From Fibrobacterota bacterium (GTDB taxonomy: Bacteria; Fibrobacterota; Fibrobacteria; UBA11236), in NCBI GenBank assembly GCA_947482115.1, contig CANKII010000001.1, positions 448,785-512,784 on the forward strand: a stretch of DNA of 64,000 nt, in the 5' to 3' direction. Under the pieces are notes generated by a model, which was not told where the DNA came from, searched no databases, and saw only the letters and a list, made by a program, of their open reading frames with translations. Below are positions 5,399-38,463 of this stretch, piece after piece; within the stretch, counting starts at the first letter, position 1; each line of letters starts with the position of its first letter. Made by a program: the position numbers and the translations under genes.

Positions 5399-7204
5399 TT
5401 AATCCTCTTCGCCCGGCTTAATCCCAAATCTCCGCCTCAATTCATCCAGTGAATACCGAATCAATACCGGCGCGCCGGTGGGTGTGACATACGGATTCCT
5501 TGTAGCGAATAAACCGTCCACAATCGCAGCCATGTGCGCCGCATCAAGCGGCTGGCCCAATGGAATAGATGCTGCGCGAGCGTAGGCGCGGGCGACGCGG
5601 GCCAAGAGCTCATCCGCATCTTGATTCTTTCCGCCATGATCCGAATCCAATAATTTCCCAACCAGCGATTGCAGAATCTCCCTGGCTTTTTCCGCCGCCA
5701 CTTCACTGGGCAATCCCCGCAATTGAAACGCCGTCTTGCCGAAAGGTTCCAAATCAAATCCCAGTGCGCGGAGTTCCGGCAATCGTTCTTCAACTGCACG
5801 AGCTTCAGAGACAGTAAACTCCACCAATTCCGGAAACAAAAGCTGCTGTGCGTTGAACCGCCCCGGACGGCGCATGTCTTCCAAAGATTTTTCATACAGA
5901 ATGCGTTCATGCGCAGCCTGTTGATTCACCAGCAGAAAACCACTTTGCACCGCCACCAGAATAAAACTGCCATGAATCTGTAGGCTCGGCGCGCCAGTTG
6001 TTTCAGCGGGAACCGGCATGGATGCAGGAAAGCGAGCATCAACAGGGAAAAGTGTCGGAGCAGGAATGGATTCAACAGGTGATGGAGATTCGGAAACCGA
6101 CATGGAATCCGGTGGAGTGAAAGTAAAGGCAGGGATTTCAGTAACTGAAGTGGCTTCCGCTACTGACTCGCTTTTCACCGGTGTGGAGACATTGAGTTCC
6201 AATGACGGTGCATTGATAGTTTGACGCAACGCCTTCCGCAGGGCCTGTGACAAGGCCCAAAAGACCCGTACTTCATTGAGGAAGCGCACTTCGCGCTTCG
6301 CAGGATGAATGTTCACATCCACTTCGGCGGGGGAGATGGAGATGAACAATGCCGACACGGGATAGCGACCAGGCGAGGTGACTTCATAAGCCTGCGACAC
6401 GGCACGTGTCAACATTCCACCTTGCACATAACGGCGGTTGATGAAGAAGTATTGCTGGTTGGGGCGGCTCGAAAAACGCTGCGGCTCGGAGATATATCCC
6501 TGTATGTGAATCCCATCGCCTTCCCAGTCCACTTCCACCAAATCGGCGAGAAGATGAACACCCAAGACATCACCTGCCCGGCGGCGCAAGGTGCCTTCGG
6601 GAAGATGGAGCAATTCCCGTGTACCTTCGGAGAGCCGGATGGAAACACCGGGATGCGCCAAAGACATGCGCGTCAGTAATCCGGAAATGCGCGTACCTTC
6701 CGCCTTGCCGCTCGACAAAAATTTTCGCCGCACCGGATTATTCCGGAATAAATTTCGAATGGAAAATGTCGTCCCCTGCGGCCGCGCAATGTCCTTCAGT
6801 TCTTCCTGTTGTGATTCCACCACGCGAAGCAAGGTGCCGATTTCTTCTTCCCAATGCCGTGTCTCCACGGTGAATTCGGAAACGGCTGCCATACTGGCCA
6901 AGGCTTCTCCACGAAATCCGAAGCTGGAAACGATTTCCAAATCTTCCACCGCATTGATTTTGCTGGTGGTGTGGGGGAGCCAACAATGCGAGACATCTTC
7001 ACGTGTCATGCCCGAGCCGTTATCCGCCACGCGAATGAGTTCCTTGCCGCCATCTTCCAGCGTGATGGAAATCTTGGTGGCTCCGGCGTCCAAGGCGTTT
7101 TCGACCAATTCCTTGACCACATTGGCTGGACGCTCAATGACCTCGCCTGCAGCGATTTTTTGGATGGTTAAGGGGGAAAGAGCCTGAATTATGGGGGCGG
7201 GCAT
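5399..7204 (-). CDS. mutL: DNA mismatch repair protein MutL
   Basis: 601 aa; N-terminal GHKL ATPase motifs IAAGEVIERPANVVKELVENALDAGATKI...DNGSGM. Confidence 0.9.
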   Translation of the reverse strand: MPAPIIQALSPLTIQKIAAGEVIERPANVVKELVENALDAGATKISITLEDGGKELIRVADNGSGMTREDVSHCWLPHTTSKINAVEDLEIVSSFGFRGEALASMAAVSEFTVETRHWEEEIGTLLRVVESQQEELKDIARPQGTTFSIRNLFRNNPVRRKFLSSGKAEGTRISGLLTRMSLAHPGVSIRLSEGTRELLHLPEGTLRRRAGDVLGVHLLADLVEVDWEGDGIHIQGYISEPQRFSSRPNQQYFFINRRYVQGGMLTRAVSQAYEVTSPGRYPVSALFISISPAEVDVNIHPAKREVRFLNEVRVFWALSQALRKALRQTINAPSLELNVSTPVKSESVAEATSVTEIPAFTFTPPDSMSVSESPSPVESIPAPTLFPVDARFPASMPVPAETTGAPSLQIHGSFILVAVQSGFLLVNQQAAHERILYEKSLEDMRRPGRFNAQQLLFPELVEFTVSEARAVEERLPELRALGFDLEPFGKTAFQLRGLPSEVAAEKAREILQSLVGKLLDSDHGGKNQDADELLARVARAYARAASIPLGQPLDAAHMAAIVDGLFATRNPYVTPTGAPVLIRYSLDELRRRFGIKPGEED

Positions 7205-7229: not shown

Positions 7230-7378
7230 CCTCACCCCTAACCCCTCTCAATTTGTTAAAGAGATGGAGAGGGAAGGTCTAAATTTTCTTTCTTTCGCTT
7301 TTTTGGGGAACTACCCCTCTCCCGTCCTTTAAGATGGGAGAGGGGCGAATTCATAGACTATGGATTATGGGGTGAGGG
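7230..7378. repeat. composite palindromic repeat, copy A (outer CCTCACCCC...GGGGTGAGG arms enclosing two CCCCTCTC(CC)-loop-G(G)GAGAGGGG hairpins)
   Basis: Intergenic between mutL start and Rrf2 gene; same architecture as 14758..14881 and 38305..38440. Confidence 0.8.
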
Positions 7379-7420
7379 CGTTATACCCTATTGTCCATAT
7401 CAGTTTGATATGATATATTG

Positions 7421-12571: not shown

Positions 12572-13507
12572 ATGGAAAACACCCCGCTCCCCGCTTTTTC
12601 TCCACCCACAACCTTCTCCCACGGCGACCGCATCTGGCGGGCTACCGGCGATAAACTCGCCGTCCGCATTGTGCTGGTGGACAACACCGAAACCGCCAAT
12701 CGCATCGCCTCGGCGCACGGTGCACAGGCCTTCGCCCGCCAGCTTCTCGGCGAATCCATCTCCGCTTCGCTTTTGCTCGCTTCGGGTCTCAAGGGACCGG
12801 GAACGATTCAACTGCGCTTCTCGCTTTCAGGCGACATCAGCCGCGTGGCTGCCGATGCCACACCGATGGGGTTGGTGCGCGCCATGATCCCGCAGGAAGA
12901 TCTTTCCCGCACCGGAAATTTTGAACCCATGTTGCTGCCGCAAATGTTGACGGTGAGCAAGCTGGATCGCGATGGTCAGCGCATTGCCGAGGGCATCGTG
13001 GAAATGGAATCGGCGGACATCTCGCAAAGCGTAACCCATTATTTGCGCCAGAGCGAACAGGGCAAGGCTTGGCTGCGCGCGACATCGGTATGCGATACGC
13101 CTACGGGAGAACGACTGCATTTCAGCGGCGGGTTTTTAATCGAAGGTTTTCCCGGTTTGTTGGAAGCCGGGTGGAAAGCGATTGAAACGACTGCGCAAGG
13201 TTTGGATGTGGCCGCTTACGCGCTTCCCGGCGGCGGACTGGATTTACACGCTTTGTTCAACCAGTTTGCCGCGCATTTCCCTGCGCAAATTCATCAGGAG
13301 TTCAAGGTCGAGTCCTATTGTCCATGCACAGAAGACGGAGTGCTTCGCGCCATGGCGGGATTGGGACGTGACGAACTACTGAGCATTCTGATGGAAGGAC
13401 AGGATACCGAGGTGTTCTGCGAGTTCTGCCGCCGCCGTTATGCCATTCTTCCCGAGCAAATCGGAGCTCTTTTGGACGGTTTGGAGCCAGACGAAGAGCT
13501 ACCTTGA
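12572..13507 (+). CDS. hslO: redox-regulated chaperone Hsp33
   Basis: C-terminal zinc centre CPCTEDG...CEFCRRRY (CxC...CxxC) and N-terminal Hsp33 fold motifs; exact start uncertain. Confidence 0.85.
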   Translation: MENTPLPAFSPPTTFSHGDRIWRATGDKLAVRIVLVDNTETANRIASAHGAQAFARQLLGESISASLLLASGLKGPGTIQLRFSLSGDISRVAADATPMGLVRAMIPQEDLSRTGNFEPMLLPQMLTVSKLDRDGQRIAEGIVEMESADISQSVTHYLRQSEQGKAWLRATSVCDTPTGERLHFSGGFLIEGFPGLLEAGWKAIETTAQGLDVAAYALPGGGLDLHALFNQFAAHFPAQIHQEFKVESYCPCTEDGVLRAMAGLGRDELLSILMEGQDTEVFCEFCRRRYAILPEQIGALLDGLEPDEELP

Positions 13508-13527
13508 TGCCTCCGGAAGAAAAGATC

Positions 13528-15258
13528 ATGTCATACCTCGTCATGGCCCGCAAATGGCGGCCGAAGAACTTCGAAGAAATGGTGGGGCAGGAGCATATCG
13601 CCAAGACGCTCCGCAACGCCCTGACTTCCGGCCGCATCGCCCATGCATTCCTATTCACCGGAACCCGCGGAGTGGGGAAGACCACCTCCGCCAGAATTCT
13701 CGCCAAAGCCTTGAACTGCAAAAATGGCCCAACACCGACGCCTTGTGAAGTCTGCGAAAACTGCCTTGCAGTAAATCAGGGCGCATCCATGGACGTTCTC
13801 GAAATCGACGGCGCGTCCAACAACGGTGTGGACAATGTTCGCGACTTGCGCGAACAGGTGAAGTATGCGCCGATGCACGGCCAATACAAGATTTACATCA
13901 TCGACGAAGTACACATGCTTTCCAAGGCGGCGTTCAACGCTTTGCTCAAGACTTTGGAAGAGCCGCCTCCGCATGTGATTTTCATCTTCGCCACCACCGA
14001 GGTGAGCAAGGTTCCTCACACCATTTTATCCCGCGTCCAACGCTTCGACTTCCGCCGCATTTCCGAGACGGCCATTCGCGATCGACTCGACTTCATTTGC
14101 GGACAGGAAAAGATTCAGTTTGAAGTGGAAGCGCTGGAAGCCATTGCCCGTAAGGCCGACGGCAGCATGCGCGATGCACTGAGCCTGTTTGATCGCGTCG
14201 TCGCCTTTACCGGTGAAAGCCTGACTTTGGAATCCACGCGCAAGGTGCTTGGCATTCCCGAAGACCGGTTGTTCGGGAATTTGTTGAAGTGTTTGATGAC
14301 CCATGATACGGCGGGGTGTTTCAAGGCTTTGGAAGAAGTGTATCATCAGGGTTTGGAGATCTCCGAATTCCTGTCCGGCTTTGGGGAATATCTGCGTGAT
14401 GTGTTGTTCAGCCGTCAGGAAGGCATTACACCCGCTATGTTGGGAGTGGGTGAGGCGCGCTTCCGAGATTTACGAGCCTTGGCTTTGGATCTTCAAGACG
14501 GTGATTTGTTGCGCTATGCCAAGATCACTTCTGATTTACTCGGTGGTTTAAAGACTGCTCCGCATCCACGACTGTGGGTGGAACTGGGCCTGTCGCGTAT
14601 GGCCGCTTTGGATCGCGTGGTCACCTTGTCACAGTTGATGGGGCAGGAATCATTGCCTCCTGTGCATATTCAGCCTGCACCTCCGGTTCAATTGCCTACG
14701 GCAGCAGTACCTATTCCGGAACCGATTCCCGAGGCTAAAAAAAAAAGTCCTGAACAACCCTCATCCCCAACCCCTTCTCCCACGGTAGTGGGAGAAGGGG
14801 AAGAAGAAACGGTTTTAAAACCACAATTCTCTTCTCACCCCTCTCCCGCGTTTAAGGCGGGAGAGGGGCTGGGGGTGAGGGATTTACCCGCCCAATGGAC
14901 CGCATTGGTCGATTCCTATTCCATCGAAAAGCCGCTTACCGCAAGTCCCTTGCGATATAGCCACTTACGCATAAAACCTGAAGAAACTCCCGTGGTGGAA
15001 ATTGTATTTTCAGGGAGTGGACATCACGATCTTTTTCTGGCCGATGGTGAGGGGAAACGCAGCCTCAGAAACTTTCTCGCTGCATCGCTCGAAGCCGACA
15101 GTATTTTCACTTTGGCCTTCGCATTTGAAGAGCCCGTGGGTGGTACATCCAAGTCGGCTCCGGTTACGGAAGGCCTGAATGTTTTGCTGCAACGAGAGCC
15201 CATCGTAAAAACCCTGCTGGACATGTTCGAGGGGCGCGTGCTCGAAGGTCCGGTTTAA
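13528..15258 (+). CDS. dnaX: DNA polymerase III subunits gamma/tau
   Basis: AAA+ clamp-loader motifs RPKNFEEMVGQEHI, GTRGVGKTTSARILAKALNC, zinc module CEVCENC, DEVHML, SRVQRFDF; contains in-frame repeat insert 14758..14881 and A10 tract 14737..14746. Confidence 0.9.
   Translation: MSYLVMARKWRPKNFEEMVGQEHIAKTLRNALTSGRIAHAFLFTGTRGVGKTTSARILAKALNCKNGPTPTPCEVCENCLAVNQGASMDVLEIDGASNNGVDNVRDLREQVKYAPMHGQYKIYIIDEVHMLSKAAFNALLKTLEEPPPHVIFIFATTEVSKVPHTILSRVQRFDFRRISETAIRDRLDFICGQEKIQFEVEALEAIARKADGSMRDALSLFDRVVAFTGESLTLESTRKVLGIPEDRLFGNLLKCLMTHDTAGCFKALEEVYHQGLEISEFLSGFGEYLRDVLFSRQEGITPAMLGVGEARFRDLRALALDLQDGDLLRYAKITSDLLGGLKTAPHPRLWVELGLSRMAALDRVVTLSQLMGQESLPPVHIQPAPPVQLPTAAVPIPEPIPEAKKKSPEQPSSPTPSPTVVGEGEEETVLKPQFSSHPSPAFKAGEGLGVRDLPAQWTALVDSYSIEKPLTASPLRYSHLRIKPEETPVVEIVFSGSGHHDLFLADGEGKRSLRNFLAASLEADSIFTLAFAFEEPVGGTSKSAPVTEGLNVLLQREPIVKTLLDMFEGRVLEGPV
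14737..14753 (+). promoter_or_regulatory. candidate tau/gamma recoding site: A10 slippery run followed by -1-frame UGA
   Basis: AAA AAA AAA A in zero frame; -1 frame reads AAG UCC UGA (stop 14751..14753); GAGG 3 nt upstream; strong hairpin element starts 12 nt downstream. Confidence 0.45.
14758..14881. repeat. composite palindromic repeat, copy C, inserted in frame in dnaX linker
   Basis: CCCTCATCCCC-AA-CCCCTTCTCCC-loop-GGGAGAAGGGG-spacer-CCCCTCTCCC-loop-GGGAGAGGGG-CT-GGGGGTGAGGG; translated as ...SSPTPSPTVVGEGEEETVLKPQFSSHPSPAFKAGEGLGVRD... Confidence 0.8.
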
Positions 15259-15280
15259 ATTTAAGGACGAGGAGAGTCTT

Positions 15281-15586
15281 ATGAACATGCAGAAAATGCT
15301 CAAGGAATTGCAAAAGGTGCAGGGCCGCATGGGCAAGGTGCAGGAAGAGTTGCAGTCGGCCATATACGATGCTGAGGCTGGCGGCGGTTTGGTCAAGGTT
15401 TCCATGAACGGCAAATACGAAGTCCAGGCCGTGCGTCTCAAGAAAGAAGCCGTGGATCCGGACGATGTCGAGGCTTTGGAAGATTTATTGCTGGCGGCTT
15501 TCAATGAAGCGCGCAACAAAGTCGAAACAGATTCGCAGGAAAAAATGGGCGGATTGACAAAAGGTTTGGGAATACCGGGAATGTGA
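15281..15586 (+). CDS. ybaB: nucleoid-associated protein YbaB/EbfC
   Basis: 101 aa, MNMQKMLKELQKVQGRMGKVQEEL...GGGLVKVSMNGKYEV..., family signature; follows dnaX as in most bacteria. Confidence 0.85.
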   Translation: MNMQKMLKELQKVQGRMGKVQEELQSAIYDAEAGGGLVKVSMNGKYEVQAVRLKKEAVDPDDVEALEDLLLAAFNEARNKVETDSQEKMGGLTKGLGIPGM

Positions 15587-15667
15587 GCTAAAAACGTCGT
15601 TTTGACAAACTGTCGCTTTGCCAGAACGACCATGCAACTCACATCCAGTCTTATCTTTTAATCACTA

Positions 15668-16474
15668 ATGGAAATCTTTATCGCACTCTTGAAGGGGCTG
15701 CTCCCTGTCGCCTATCTCATCTGTCTGTGGTTTTACGGACAGTTGTTTTTCAGCGCGGATGAAACGAAGCAAAGCCGTTGGGCCAAACTCAGTGTGGCGA
15801 TTGCGGTATGCATGCACACAGCCCTGTTATTTAGTCTCGCGGCCCAATATCATCGCTGTCCCTTGTGGACTCAAGGCGAAGCTTTGTTGTTTCTGGCATG
15901 GATGTTGGCCATTGTCCATCTTCTTTCCGAATGGTCGGCGGATACACGGAGATTGGGGTTCTTCACTTTGGGACCGGCTGCTTTTTGCGCCACTGTGGCG
16001 CTGTCCTTTCTCGGTAAAGAATTGATGCTGGATGCGCAATACCGCAGTTCCTGGTTCATCTTTCACATCGTTGCGAGCCTCGCCGCTTATGCCGCCTTCA
16101 GTCTGGCCGCCGTTTTGGCTGCCTTGTATCTGACTTTGCATCGCAAGCTTAAACTCAAAACTTTCGACCTGACATTTCGCAAACTTCCGCCGCTGGACAA
16201 GCTGGACAAGCTCTCCGCCATGTGGTCCTTTTTGGGAACTTTGCTCATGCTTGCCAGCACGGTCATCGGTGTGTGGTGGGTGCGGCGCGATGGCTTGCAT
16301 GGAATGTCCCCGCGTGAAATCGGCATTTTTGTCGTACTGGCGATTTTTCTGTTTACTGCTGCAGCTCGCAGAACATTGGGCTGGCGCGGACGCCGTCATG
16401 CGATTTGGATTTTGGCGGGCTTTGCGGCCTTGGTACTGGCGAATCTTGCCGGACTGCACGGGTTTCACTTTTAG
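15668..16474 (+). CDS. cytochrome c assembly protein family membrane protein (CcsA/HemX-like)
   Basis: 268 aa polytopic membrane protein immediately upstream of hemA (B. subtilis hemAX-like arrangement), W-rich segments. Confidence 0.6.
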   Translation: MEIFIALLKGLLPVAYLICLWFYGQLFFSADETKQSRWAKLSVAIAVCMHTALLFSLAAQYHRCPLWTQGEALLFLAWMLAIVHLLSEWSADTRRLGFFTLGPAAFCATVALSFLGKELMLDAQYRSSWFIFHIVASLAAYAAFSLAAVLAALYLTLHRKLKLKTFDLTFRKLPPLDKLDKLSAMWSFLGTLLMLASTVIGVWWVRRDGLHGMSPREIGIFVVLAIFLFTAAARRTLGWRGRRHAIWILAGFAALVLANLAGLHGFHF

Positions 16475-38304: not shown

Positions 38305-38440
38305 CCCTCACCCCCAACCCCTCTCCCATCTTAAAGGATGGGAGAGGGGAGAGGAACAAATGTTTTTTTTTGTTTTGAACACGAGCATTTATCTTCCCCC
38401 CTCTCCCACTTTTTGGTGGGAGAGGGGATGGGGGTGAGGG
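38305..38440. repeat. composite palindromic repeat, copy B
   Basis: CCCTCACCCCC-AA-CCCCTCTCCC-loop-GGGAGAGGGG-AT-rich spacer (T9 run)-CCCCTCTCCC-loop-GGGAGAGGGG-AT-GGGGGTGAGGG between trmB and gatB; causes ORF caller to over-extend gatB to 38338. Confidence 0.8.
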
Positions 38441-38463
38441 TCGAGAAAACTAACTTTCATTTC

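Follow-up and report, generated by a model that had tools for sequence, protein, structure and literature searches.

Full-length tau and the shorter gamma, the two products of the bacterial dnaX gene, are known to arise by recoding at an A-rich site. In Thermus thermophilus, gamma is made through RNA polymerase slippage on a run of nine A's (A9) with stops nearby in both other frames (Larsen et al. 2000, as described in PMC1088944 and PMC5009743), and in Escherichia coli through programmed -1 ribosomal frameshifting. A run of ten A's (A10) was described in dnaX of Chlorobi, Flavobacterium, Cytophaga, Capnocytophaga and Coraliomargarita, where tau needs a shift, and was aligned with the Thermus site (Antonov et al. 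2013; PMC3711429, Fig. S3). That study includes Fibrobacteres in a genome-count table only (PMC3711429), and our literature search found no paper describing a dnaX recoding site in Fibrobacterota. We analyzed a 64,000-nt stretch from a Fibrobacterota bacterium (contig CANKII010000001.1, positions 448,785 to 512,784; hereafter, the window), in which dnaX carries A10 downstream of the region coding for domain III. As judged from the sequence comparisons described below, this run is very probably a selected tau/gamma recoding site.

The dnaX frame, the run and the stops that close its alternative frames are as follows.
13507..15258, + strand: dnaX tau reading frame (list of open reading frames, or ORFs; Pfam DNA_pol3_delta2, DNAX_ATPase_lid and DNA_pol3_gamma3; 100% match to homologue P0001; synteny)
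13528..14634, + strand: region coding for DnaX domains I-III, common to tau and gamma (end of the PF12169 match)
14737..14746, + strand: A10 slippery run AAA AAA AAA A, the putative recoding site (read from the sequence; A9-A11 at the equivalent place in 23/23 loci)
14739..14745, + strand: A_AAA_AAA, the only in-frame X_XXY_YYZ heptamer (from the reading frame)
14751..14753, + strand: UGA in the -1 frame (AAG UCC UGA), to be reached by an A11 mRNA or a -1 shift, the predicted gamma ending ...KKKK-S
14786..14788, + strand: UAG in the +1 frame, to be reached by an A9 or A12 mRNA, the predicted gamma' ending ...KKK(K)VLNNPHPQPLLPR; the stop falls within the hairpin 1 loop of the repeat described below

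Pfam recognizes the clamp-loader AAA+ module, the lid and domain III (PF12169), the last ending at residue 369 as counted from ATG 13528, and the run follows 34 codons past domain III. Its first A is codon position 1, and the zero frame reads AAA AAA AAA AGT CCT GAA (KKKSPE), with KKK at residues 404-406 and KKKS at 404-407. The -1-frame UGA is found 4 nt past the run, and the +1 frame (GTC CTG AAC ... CGG TAG) continues for 13 codons (VLNNPHPQPLLPR) before its stop, 39 nt past the run. A first-pass annotation of this stretch had placed the A10, the frames, both stops, a GAGG motif and a nested downstream structure; all of these coordinates were correct when read from the sequence. In the window's dinucleotide shuffles, runs of nine or more A's are no rarity, and the chance of KKKS being spelled as A10 is about 4.5% under this genome's usage (AAA makes up 0.53 of Lys codons and AGY 0.31 of Ser codons). 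For these two reasons, selection on the run is unproven by the window alone; it is the comparative data that show it.

We compared the window with 22 relatives' loci (23 in all), obtained from the exact encoding contigs and a clade-specific metagenome scan, and surveyed at the protein level the best 120 DnaX homologues. The run is A10 in 18 loci, A11 in four and A9 in one, and in none is it shorter than nine. All 69 Lys codons at these sites are AAA, across lineages of differing GC content, and the codon after the run starts with A where needed. In the relatives, the run is located 26-147 nt past the point where the domain III match ends, and two independent assemblies (L081 and L082), identical to the window around the run, have the same A10. 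At the protein level, exactly KKK is present at about residues 380-430 in 101 of the 120 homologues (in one of them, at residue 509), at the centre of a conserved island, [E/D]x-KKK-[S/N]P[E/D], amid a hypervariable Pro/Ala-rich linker. Gene calls of gamma length, ending 1-10 residues past the Lys run, account for about 13 of the homologues.

The alternative frames are closed with similar regularity. The commonest layout, A10-GYC-CUGA with the -1 stop 4 nt past the run, is shared by the window and 10 relatives' loci; in the relatives of this type the +1 stop comes 9-27 nt past the run, mostly at 9-15 nt. Both non-tau frames are closed within 1-27 nt in 22/23 loci, a closeness which, compared with other positions in the same genes, has a median empirical p of 0.002; the window is the only locus where stop spacing is not significant (p = 0.14). 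The conserved SPE/SPD can be read as the footprint of AG(Y) CCU GA(N), i.e., of the out-of-frame UGA. In a deep-branching clade, which may be Fibrobacter, the site takes the form UCA-AAA-AAA-AAA-UUA, with stops 1 and 5 nt past the run. The run-bearing L110 and L111 may represent a clade of Fibrobacter type.

Nineteen of the 120 homologues lack an exact KKK: two are truncated before the site, 12 belong to a clade with short DnaX, three end in KKNS or EKK immediately followed by a stop (the sequenced one, L112, has A9), and two, P0021 and P0077, are real exceptions. In L113, the locus of P0021, no run of six or more A's was present in the region scanned. The short-DnaX clade (L097-L109; P0080-P0082, P0088, P0089, P0093, P0094, P0099, P0102, P0103, P0106 and P0117), one member of which is named Fibrobacteria at its source, has proteins of 437-469 aa in which domain III is followed by a short linker and a C-terminal helix (...GPNLQQAVE.DP.LGR.V..FDATP); there is no A run, and domains IV and V are apparently mostly lacking. 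The cassette, in one-ORF or two-ORF form, appears in every relative sequenced except the L113 lineage and the short-DnaX clade.

The two-ORF form is represented by four relatives (L084, L002, L088 and L112), in which the zero frame is gamma, ending at a stop 3-8 nt past the run, and the tau C-terminus occupies 475-635 nt of open -1 frame. Gene calls at these loci consist of a DnaX of about 390 aa and an unannotated ORF of 156-199 aa (in L084, 3670-4317), and the pairs are likely mis-annotated as truncated genes. Long-read homopolymer error was rejected as a general cause of the two-ORF arrangement: L088 and L112 are short-read assemblies, and the L112 protein was found on 16 contigs. Without a shift, these relatives would be unable to make the essential full-length tau, which argues against the view that nothing is recoded here and that KKK is conserved as a protein feature within the tau linker, with A10 and the stops as its by-products. 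While the codon-usage chance and the frequency of A9 runs in shuffles agree with such a view, as does the loss of the run in L113 (P0021, seen in DNA), P0077 (seen in protein) and the short-DnaX clade, it is hardly credible in the face of the uniform AAA codons and the early closure of both alternative frames, and experiments have established the same cassette in Thermus. The tau/gamma recoding site proposed in the first-pass annotation finds support in a run, a position past domain III and stops in both frames that are conserved across Fibrobacterota, and in the existence of reversed forms.

Runs of this kind also occur outside the phylum. In a background sample (L003-L080, the matches listed in a full-length DnaX alignment scan of contigs, apart from two Fibrobacterota loci), A9-A10 was found just past domain III in 13 Bacteroidota loci, in Ignavibacteriota, in Planctomycetota (Gemmata, Planctomicrobium), in one Leptospira metagenome-assembled genome (MAG) and in two Desulfobacterota; no run of nine or more A's was found past domain III in the Firmicutes or Nitrospira loci among these matches.

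We favour, with a probability of roughly 0.6, the view that gamma is produced by Thermus-type transcriptional slippage on A10, and that a palindromic repeat lying just downstream is a passenger. RNA polymerase would slip on the run, over which its 9-10 bp RNA:DNA hybrid would be all rA:dT, and slipped mRNAs with A11, A12 and A9 would arise beside the templated A10. The A10 and A13 mRNAs would yield full-length tau; the A11 mRNA, reading AAG UCC UGA, would yield a gamma ending KKKKS; and the A9 and A12 mRNAs would stop at UAG 14786, giving a gamma with a 13-residue tail. The predicted junction peptides are ...PEAKKKKS, at the C-terminus, and ...KKKVLNNPHPQPLLPR. The KKKKS product would also result from a -1 ribosomal shift on A_AAA_AAA, which may be a contributor. 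As for the repeat, its insertion would have been an in-frame one, into a linker that belongs to tau only and is tolerant in sequence.

Three observations favour the transcriptional route. First, the run is at least nine in 23/23 loci although seven would suffice for ribosomal frameshifting; slippage becomes evident at nine nucleotides, and so does selection against runs of this kind (PMC1088944). Second, no locus uses A_AAA_AAG, which in E. coli shifts far more readily than A_AAA_AAA (PMC5009743). Third, the +1-frame stop is conserved too, and it is useful only if the run in some mRNAs is shorter by one A or longer by two. The same observations bear on the idea that the shift is mainly a -1 ribosomal one on A_AAA_AAA, with the repeat playing no part and the long run kept for other reasons, such as overlapping shift sites. 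A-rich heptamers are classic -1 sites (PMC5009743), the four two-ORF relatives need a -1 shift for tau, of the conserved stops the -1-frame one is nearest, and reversed dnaX genes have been discussed as frameshift candidates (PMC5009743). Nevertheless, a pure -1 route would have no need of the conserved near +1 stop, would be using a heptamer that is weak in E. coli when AAG is seen at no locus, and is accompanied by no conserved stimulator at a functional distance, and we regard it as unlikely.

The repeat forms a family with three full copies in the window.
14758..14881, + strand: in-frame palindromic repeat resembling a miniature inverted-repeat transposable element (MITE), coding for 41 residues of the tau linker (fold; family membership; only stop-free frame of six)
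7230..7378, unstranded: repeat copy 2 (nhmmer E = 4.8e-32; fold z = -5.8), apparently intergenic, flanked by an ORF end at 7204 and an ORF start at 7418
38305..38442, unstranded: repeat copy 3 (nhmmer E = 1.3e-40; fold z = -12.0), apparently intergenic

The copy in dnaX is built of an outer stem (14758-14769/14870-14881, 12 bp) enclosing hairpin 1 (14771-14783/14788-14800, 13 bp), a weak hairpin 2 (14802-14807/14830-14835) and hairpin 3 (14838-14849/14857-14868, 12 bp), in a closed multi-branch arrangement. Folded alone, 14758..14881 has an energy of -85.7 kcal/mol (z = -10.2), and in a 176-nt context of -89.7 kcal/mol (z = -6.9). Its first paired base lies 12 nt past the last A, the heptamer-to-structure spacer being likewise 12 nt, and the structure begins 4 nt past the -1-frame UGA. 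A profile built from the three copies retrieved them with nhmmer at E = 1e-31 to 1e-40 and found nothing else convincing in the 64-kb window, where counts of the core repeat motif exceed those in all shuffles. Common to the copies, which are 124-149 nt long, are terminal inverted repeats (CCCTCACCCCCAACCCCTCTCCC ... GGGAGAGGGGNTGGGGGTGAGGG), a pair of sub-hairpins and a centre that is AT-rich and variable. No obvious target-site duplication flanks any of the three. Short, dispersed, bounded by terminal inverted repeats, stably self-complementary and without coding capacity of its own, the element is best read as a repeat of the MITE or repetitive extragenic palindromic (REP) type whose in-frame insertion appears to be tolerated in the linker. 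The dnaX copy encodes PSSPTPSPTVVGEGEEETVLKPQFSSHPSPAFKAGEGLGVR, i.e., 41 of the approximately 50 residues that separate KKK from the Trp at the start of domain IV; the tau linker has accepted a translated mobile palindrome almost wholesale, the repeat now being nearly the whole linker. Copy 3 includes T9 at 38363-38371, the sole other A/T run of nine or more in the window. An antisense intrinsic terminator, composed of the palindrome and T10 on the minus strand, was considered and rejected; the gap between them is 11 nt, and a terminator scan was empty on both strands.

Comparison with relatives speaks against a requirement for this structure. Over the 140 nt past the run, the fold z is -9.3 in the window as opposed to +1.5 to -3.4 in 16 relatives, none of which forms a stable structure downstream of the run. 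L083, a 77%-identical relative, can be aligned colinearly to the window over the interval between the run and domain IV, and contains an eroded orthologous copy of the repeat (z = -1.5), yet it retains A10, the -1 UGA at 4 nt and the +1 UAG at 12 nt. In the window, the repeat, which starts 11 nt past the run, has moved the +1 stop from about 9-15 nt to 39 nt; this displacement and the non-significant stop spacing indicate that the insertion perturbed the cassette rather than completed it. Very likely, judging from these comparisons, the repeat is a passenger and is not required for recoding. As for the orthologue comparison proposed in the first-pass annotation, the A run and the -1 stop are conserved, but the downstream hairpin is not; and while its reading of the hairpin as a copy of a dispersed palindromic repeat is borne out by the three copies, the stimulatory role it assigned to that copy is not.

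Two features immediately upstream of the run also have to be taken into account.
14731..14734, + strand: GAGG, Shine-Dalgarno-like, separated by 2 nt (CT) from the run and by 4 nt from the heptamer (from the sequence)
14714..14733, + strand: weak, degenerate stem-loop with a C.C mismatch, its end 3 nt ahead of the run (fold energy -3.7 kcal/mol; local-background rank 0.30)

The first-pass annotation had likened the GAGG to the stimulatory Shine-Dalgarno-like element of E. coli dnaX and the repeat to its stimulatory stem-loop. In the corresponding model, recoding would be an E. coli-type programmed -1 frameshift, stimulated by pairing of GAGG with 16S rRNA and by the repeat as the 3' stem-loop. 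An in-frame A_AAA_AAA with a -1 stop after two codons and an extremely stable structure are indeed what such a mechanism would use, and GAGG is found at the equivalent position in 13/23 loci. However, in most of these loci it makes up the 3' arm of a hairpin upstream, and Shine-Dalgarno-like stimulation of -1 shifts needs a spacing of 9-14 nt, a spacing of 3 nt being that of +1 shifts (PMC5009743), whereas in the window GAGG is 4 nt from the heptamer. The 3' structures of -1 frameshift sites usually have a spacer of 5-9 nt, a minority working at 12-15 nt (PMC5009743), as compared with 12 nt here. Moreover, 16 relatives keep the run and the stops without a stable structure downstream, the eroded copy in L083 accompanies an intact cassette, runs of 9-11 exceed what frameshifting needs, and over 13000-16000 Rfam run permissively with cmscan (E up to 10) matched no DnaX frameshift element, the only matches being spurious ones of microRNA type on the palindrome. 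We therefore consider the E. coli-like architecture quite improbable, and it is the Thermus-type slippage, which the first-pass annotation had named as an alternative, that is favoured by a run never shorter than nine in 23 loci.

A role for the repeat after slippage has to be weighed separately. In E. coli, REP-type elements near stop codons are reported to affect translation. The repeat could hinder termination at UGA, slow down ribosomes in the tau frame or protect the mRNA 3' end, and so tune the gamma:tau ratio in this lineage only. A structure of -86 kcal/mol 4 nt past the -1-frame stop, kept intact within the species (an identical protein on at least 24 contigs), would be well placed to do so; but the structure is unique to this species among the relatives folded, and the two apparently intergenic copies are equally well paired, which makes pairing a property of the family. 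We find such a role decidedly improbable. The pattern is reciprocal between the two related loci: in the window the 5' hairpin is decayed and the 3' structure intact, and in L083 the 5' hairpin is intact and the 3' copy eroded. This would fit an E. coli-type stimulation by the repeat, or else its co-option in this lineage, either to stimulate -1 frameshifting from the 3' side across a long spacer or to form a roadblock at the gamma stop, offsetting the decayed 5' hairpin; we would call the latter a long shot.

The 5' hairpin deserves attention in its own right. The stem-loop at 14714..14733 is what remains of a UCCGGC/GCCGGA hairpin, which L083 and L086 still have in intact form. In 14/23 loci a stem of 5 bp or more ends 0-3 nt before the run, with at least six unrelated stems, GACCUC/GAGGUC, CUCUUCCG/CGGAAGAG, UCCGGC/GCCGGA, GACCCUG/CAGGGUU, CCGAC/GUCGG and GGCCU/AGGCC, among them. 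The relatives with a GC-rich hairpin in the 24 nt before the A10/A11 run are L083, L085, L086, L089, L091-L093, L095, L096, L110, L115 and L116. We tested the hairpin by its rank against the local background and by synonymous-codon resampling, the stems varying in length and register between clades. The rank is below 0.05 in 6/23 loci, and resampling gives values at or below about 0.05 in 6/23 loci (0.021 in L083 and 0.036 in L086, versus 0.44 in the window), with a Fisher p of 0.001 across loci that are not independent. In terms of protein sequence, the conserved peptide DLxEV-KKK corresponds to GACCUC-NNN-GAGGUC. In Roseiflexus IS630, transcriptional slippage is stimulated by a stem-loop in the nascent RNA (Penno et al. 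2015, via PMC5009743). The upstream hairpins in relatives are suggestive of stem-loop-assisted transcriptional slippage, with which they fit, and the signal is absent in the window. A reading tied to the co-option, and as much of a long shot, is that Fibrobacterota dnaX generally relies on slippage assisted by a hairpin in the nascent RNA, a mechanism demonstrated to date only in a Roseiflexus IS element. The hairpins abutting the run in relatives offer a lead on this process in a housekeeping gene.

Several points weigh against Thermus-type slippage with a passenger repeat. Slippage itself, its level and its mainly transcriptional route are inferred from sequence. The A run is also a good ribosomal -1 site, the main product of both routes is identical, and the two are inseparable by sequence. 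All four two-ORF relatives need a shift in the same direction, whereas shifts in both directions are the mark of transcriptional realignment for Antonov et al. Some of the relatives are long-read assemblies, in which homopolymer lengths are error-prone, although the short-read assemblies agree with them. With regard to the repeat, some 3' stimulators act at 12-15 nt, and its spacing is thus no strict bar to a role; in addition, the window copy is almost perfectly paired while its L083 orthologue has decayed, which could reflect selection.

The gene itself is embedded in the order hslO-dnaX-ybaB-ccsA-hemA, with the usual 3' partner of dnaX immediately downstream.
15281..15586, + strand: ybaB (context; PF02575 on the neighbouring gene)

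Candidate dnaX starts are TTG 13504, ATG 13507 and ATG 13528, and the ORF ends at 15258. At 13505-13509, TGATG overlaps the hslO stop with the first dnaX ATG (13507), which suggests translational coupling of hslO and dnaX. ATG 13528, on the other hand, agrees with the N-terminus of relatives (MSYLVMARKW...), which begin at its equivalent. The window DnaX is identical to P0001, and the identical protein was found on the at least 24 contigs mentioned above, from many samples; to go by their source names, its relatives are Fibrobacterota MAGs. No exact match to the products predicted for A9 and A11 in this species was present in the protein collection; given this absence and assemblies that are uniformly A10, phase variation of the run at the DNA level is without support. 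A strain variant of P0001, P0121, differs by V427G, in the loop of hairpin 1 of the repeat (window positions 14785-14787); if the change is GUA to GGA, the +1-frame UAG would be lost, and the next +1 stop would be the UAA at 14816-14818.

For annotators, the practical consequence is that gamma-length genes and split ORFs at dnaX in these MAGs should not be called pseudogenes or assembly errors. In a wider context, what is described here is the probable extension to Fibrobacterota of a known mechanism, slippage having been known since 2000 and its occurrence in neighbouring phyla since 2013.

Rickettsia palindromic elements (RPEs) and other MITE/REP-like repeats insert in frame into genes. The repeat in the window is like an RPE in being a short, non-autonomous, dispersed palindrome with one copy in frame and part of a protein, a likeness that implies no sequence relationship. 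Many Fibrobacterota relatives are similar to the Roseiflexus IS630 system in having a GC-rich hairpin 0-3 nt before the slippery run, and differ from it in that the run is A10-11 and not T5C5, the window's own hairpin being, in addition, degenerate. With the E. coli dnaX cassette, the window shares the gene, a gamma that would end 1-2 codons past the shift, an A-rich heptamer and an immediate -1 stop. Unlike E. coli, it has A_AAA_AAA and not A_AAA_AAG, the Shine-Dalgarno-like element is at 4 nt and not 10, and the structure, at 12 nt and not 6, is a non-conserved, multi-branched repeat and not a simple stem-loop, with no match to the Rfam DnaX element. The two-ORF dnaX genes of Chlorobi, Bacteroidetes and Verrucomicrobia resemble it in having A10 at the same place; Fibrobacterota belong to the FCB (Fibrobacteres-Chlorobi-Bacteroidetes) superphylum, and L084, L002, L088 and L112 have the same reversed layout. 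In contrast to the genes of Antonov et al., the window gene is a single ORF with tau in the zero frame, and would be invisible to their detector of frameshifted genes. The closest likeness is to Thermus: in both, a single tau ORF includes, in the dnaX sense strand, a run of at least nine A's past domain III with nearby stops in both alternative frames, and in Fibrobacterota this run is conserved among relatives at the nucleotide level, frame-swapped forms included. The two sites can be placed side by side as GAGGGAG-A9-GCCUGA in Thermus (PMC3711429, Fig. S3) and GAGGCU-A10-GUCCUGA in the window. The window differs from Thermus in having A10 instead of A9, in its phylum, in that slippage is predicted, and in that the +1 stop is supplied by a mobile repeat situated 12 nt downstream of the run.

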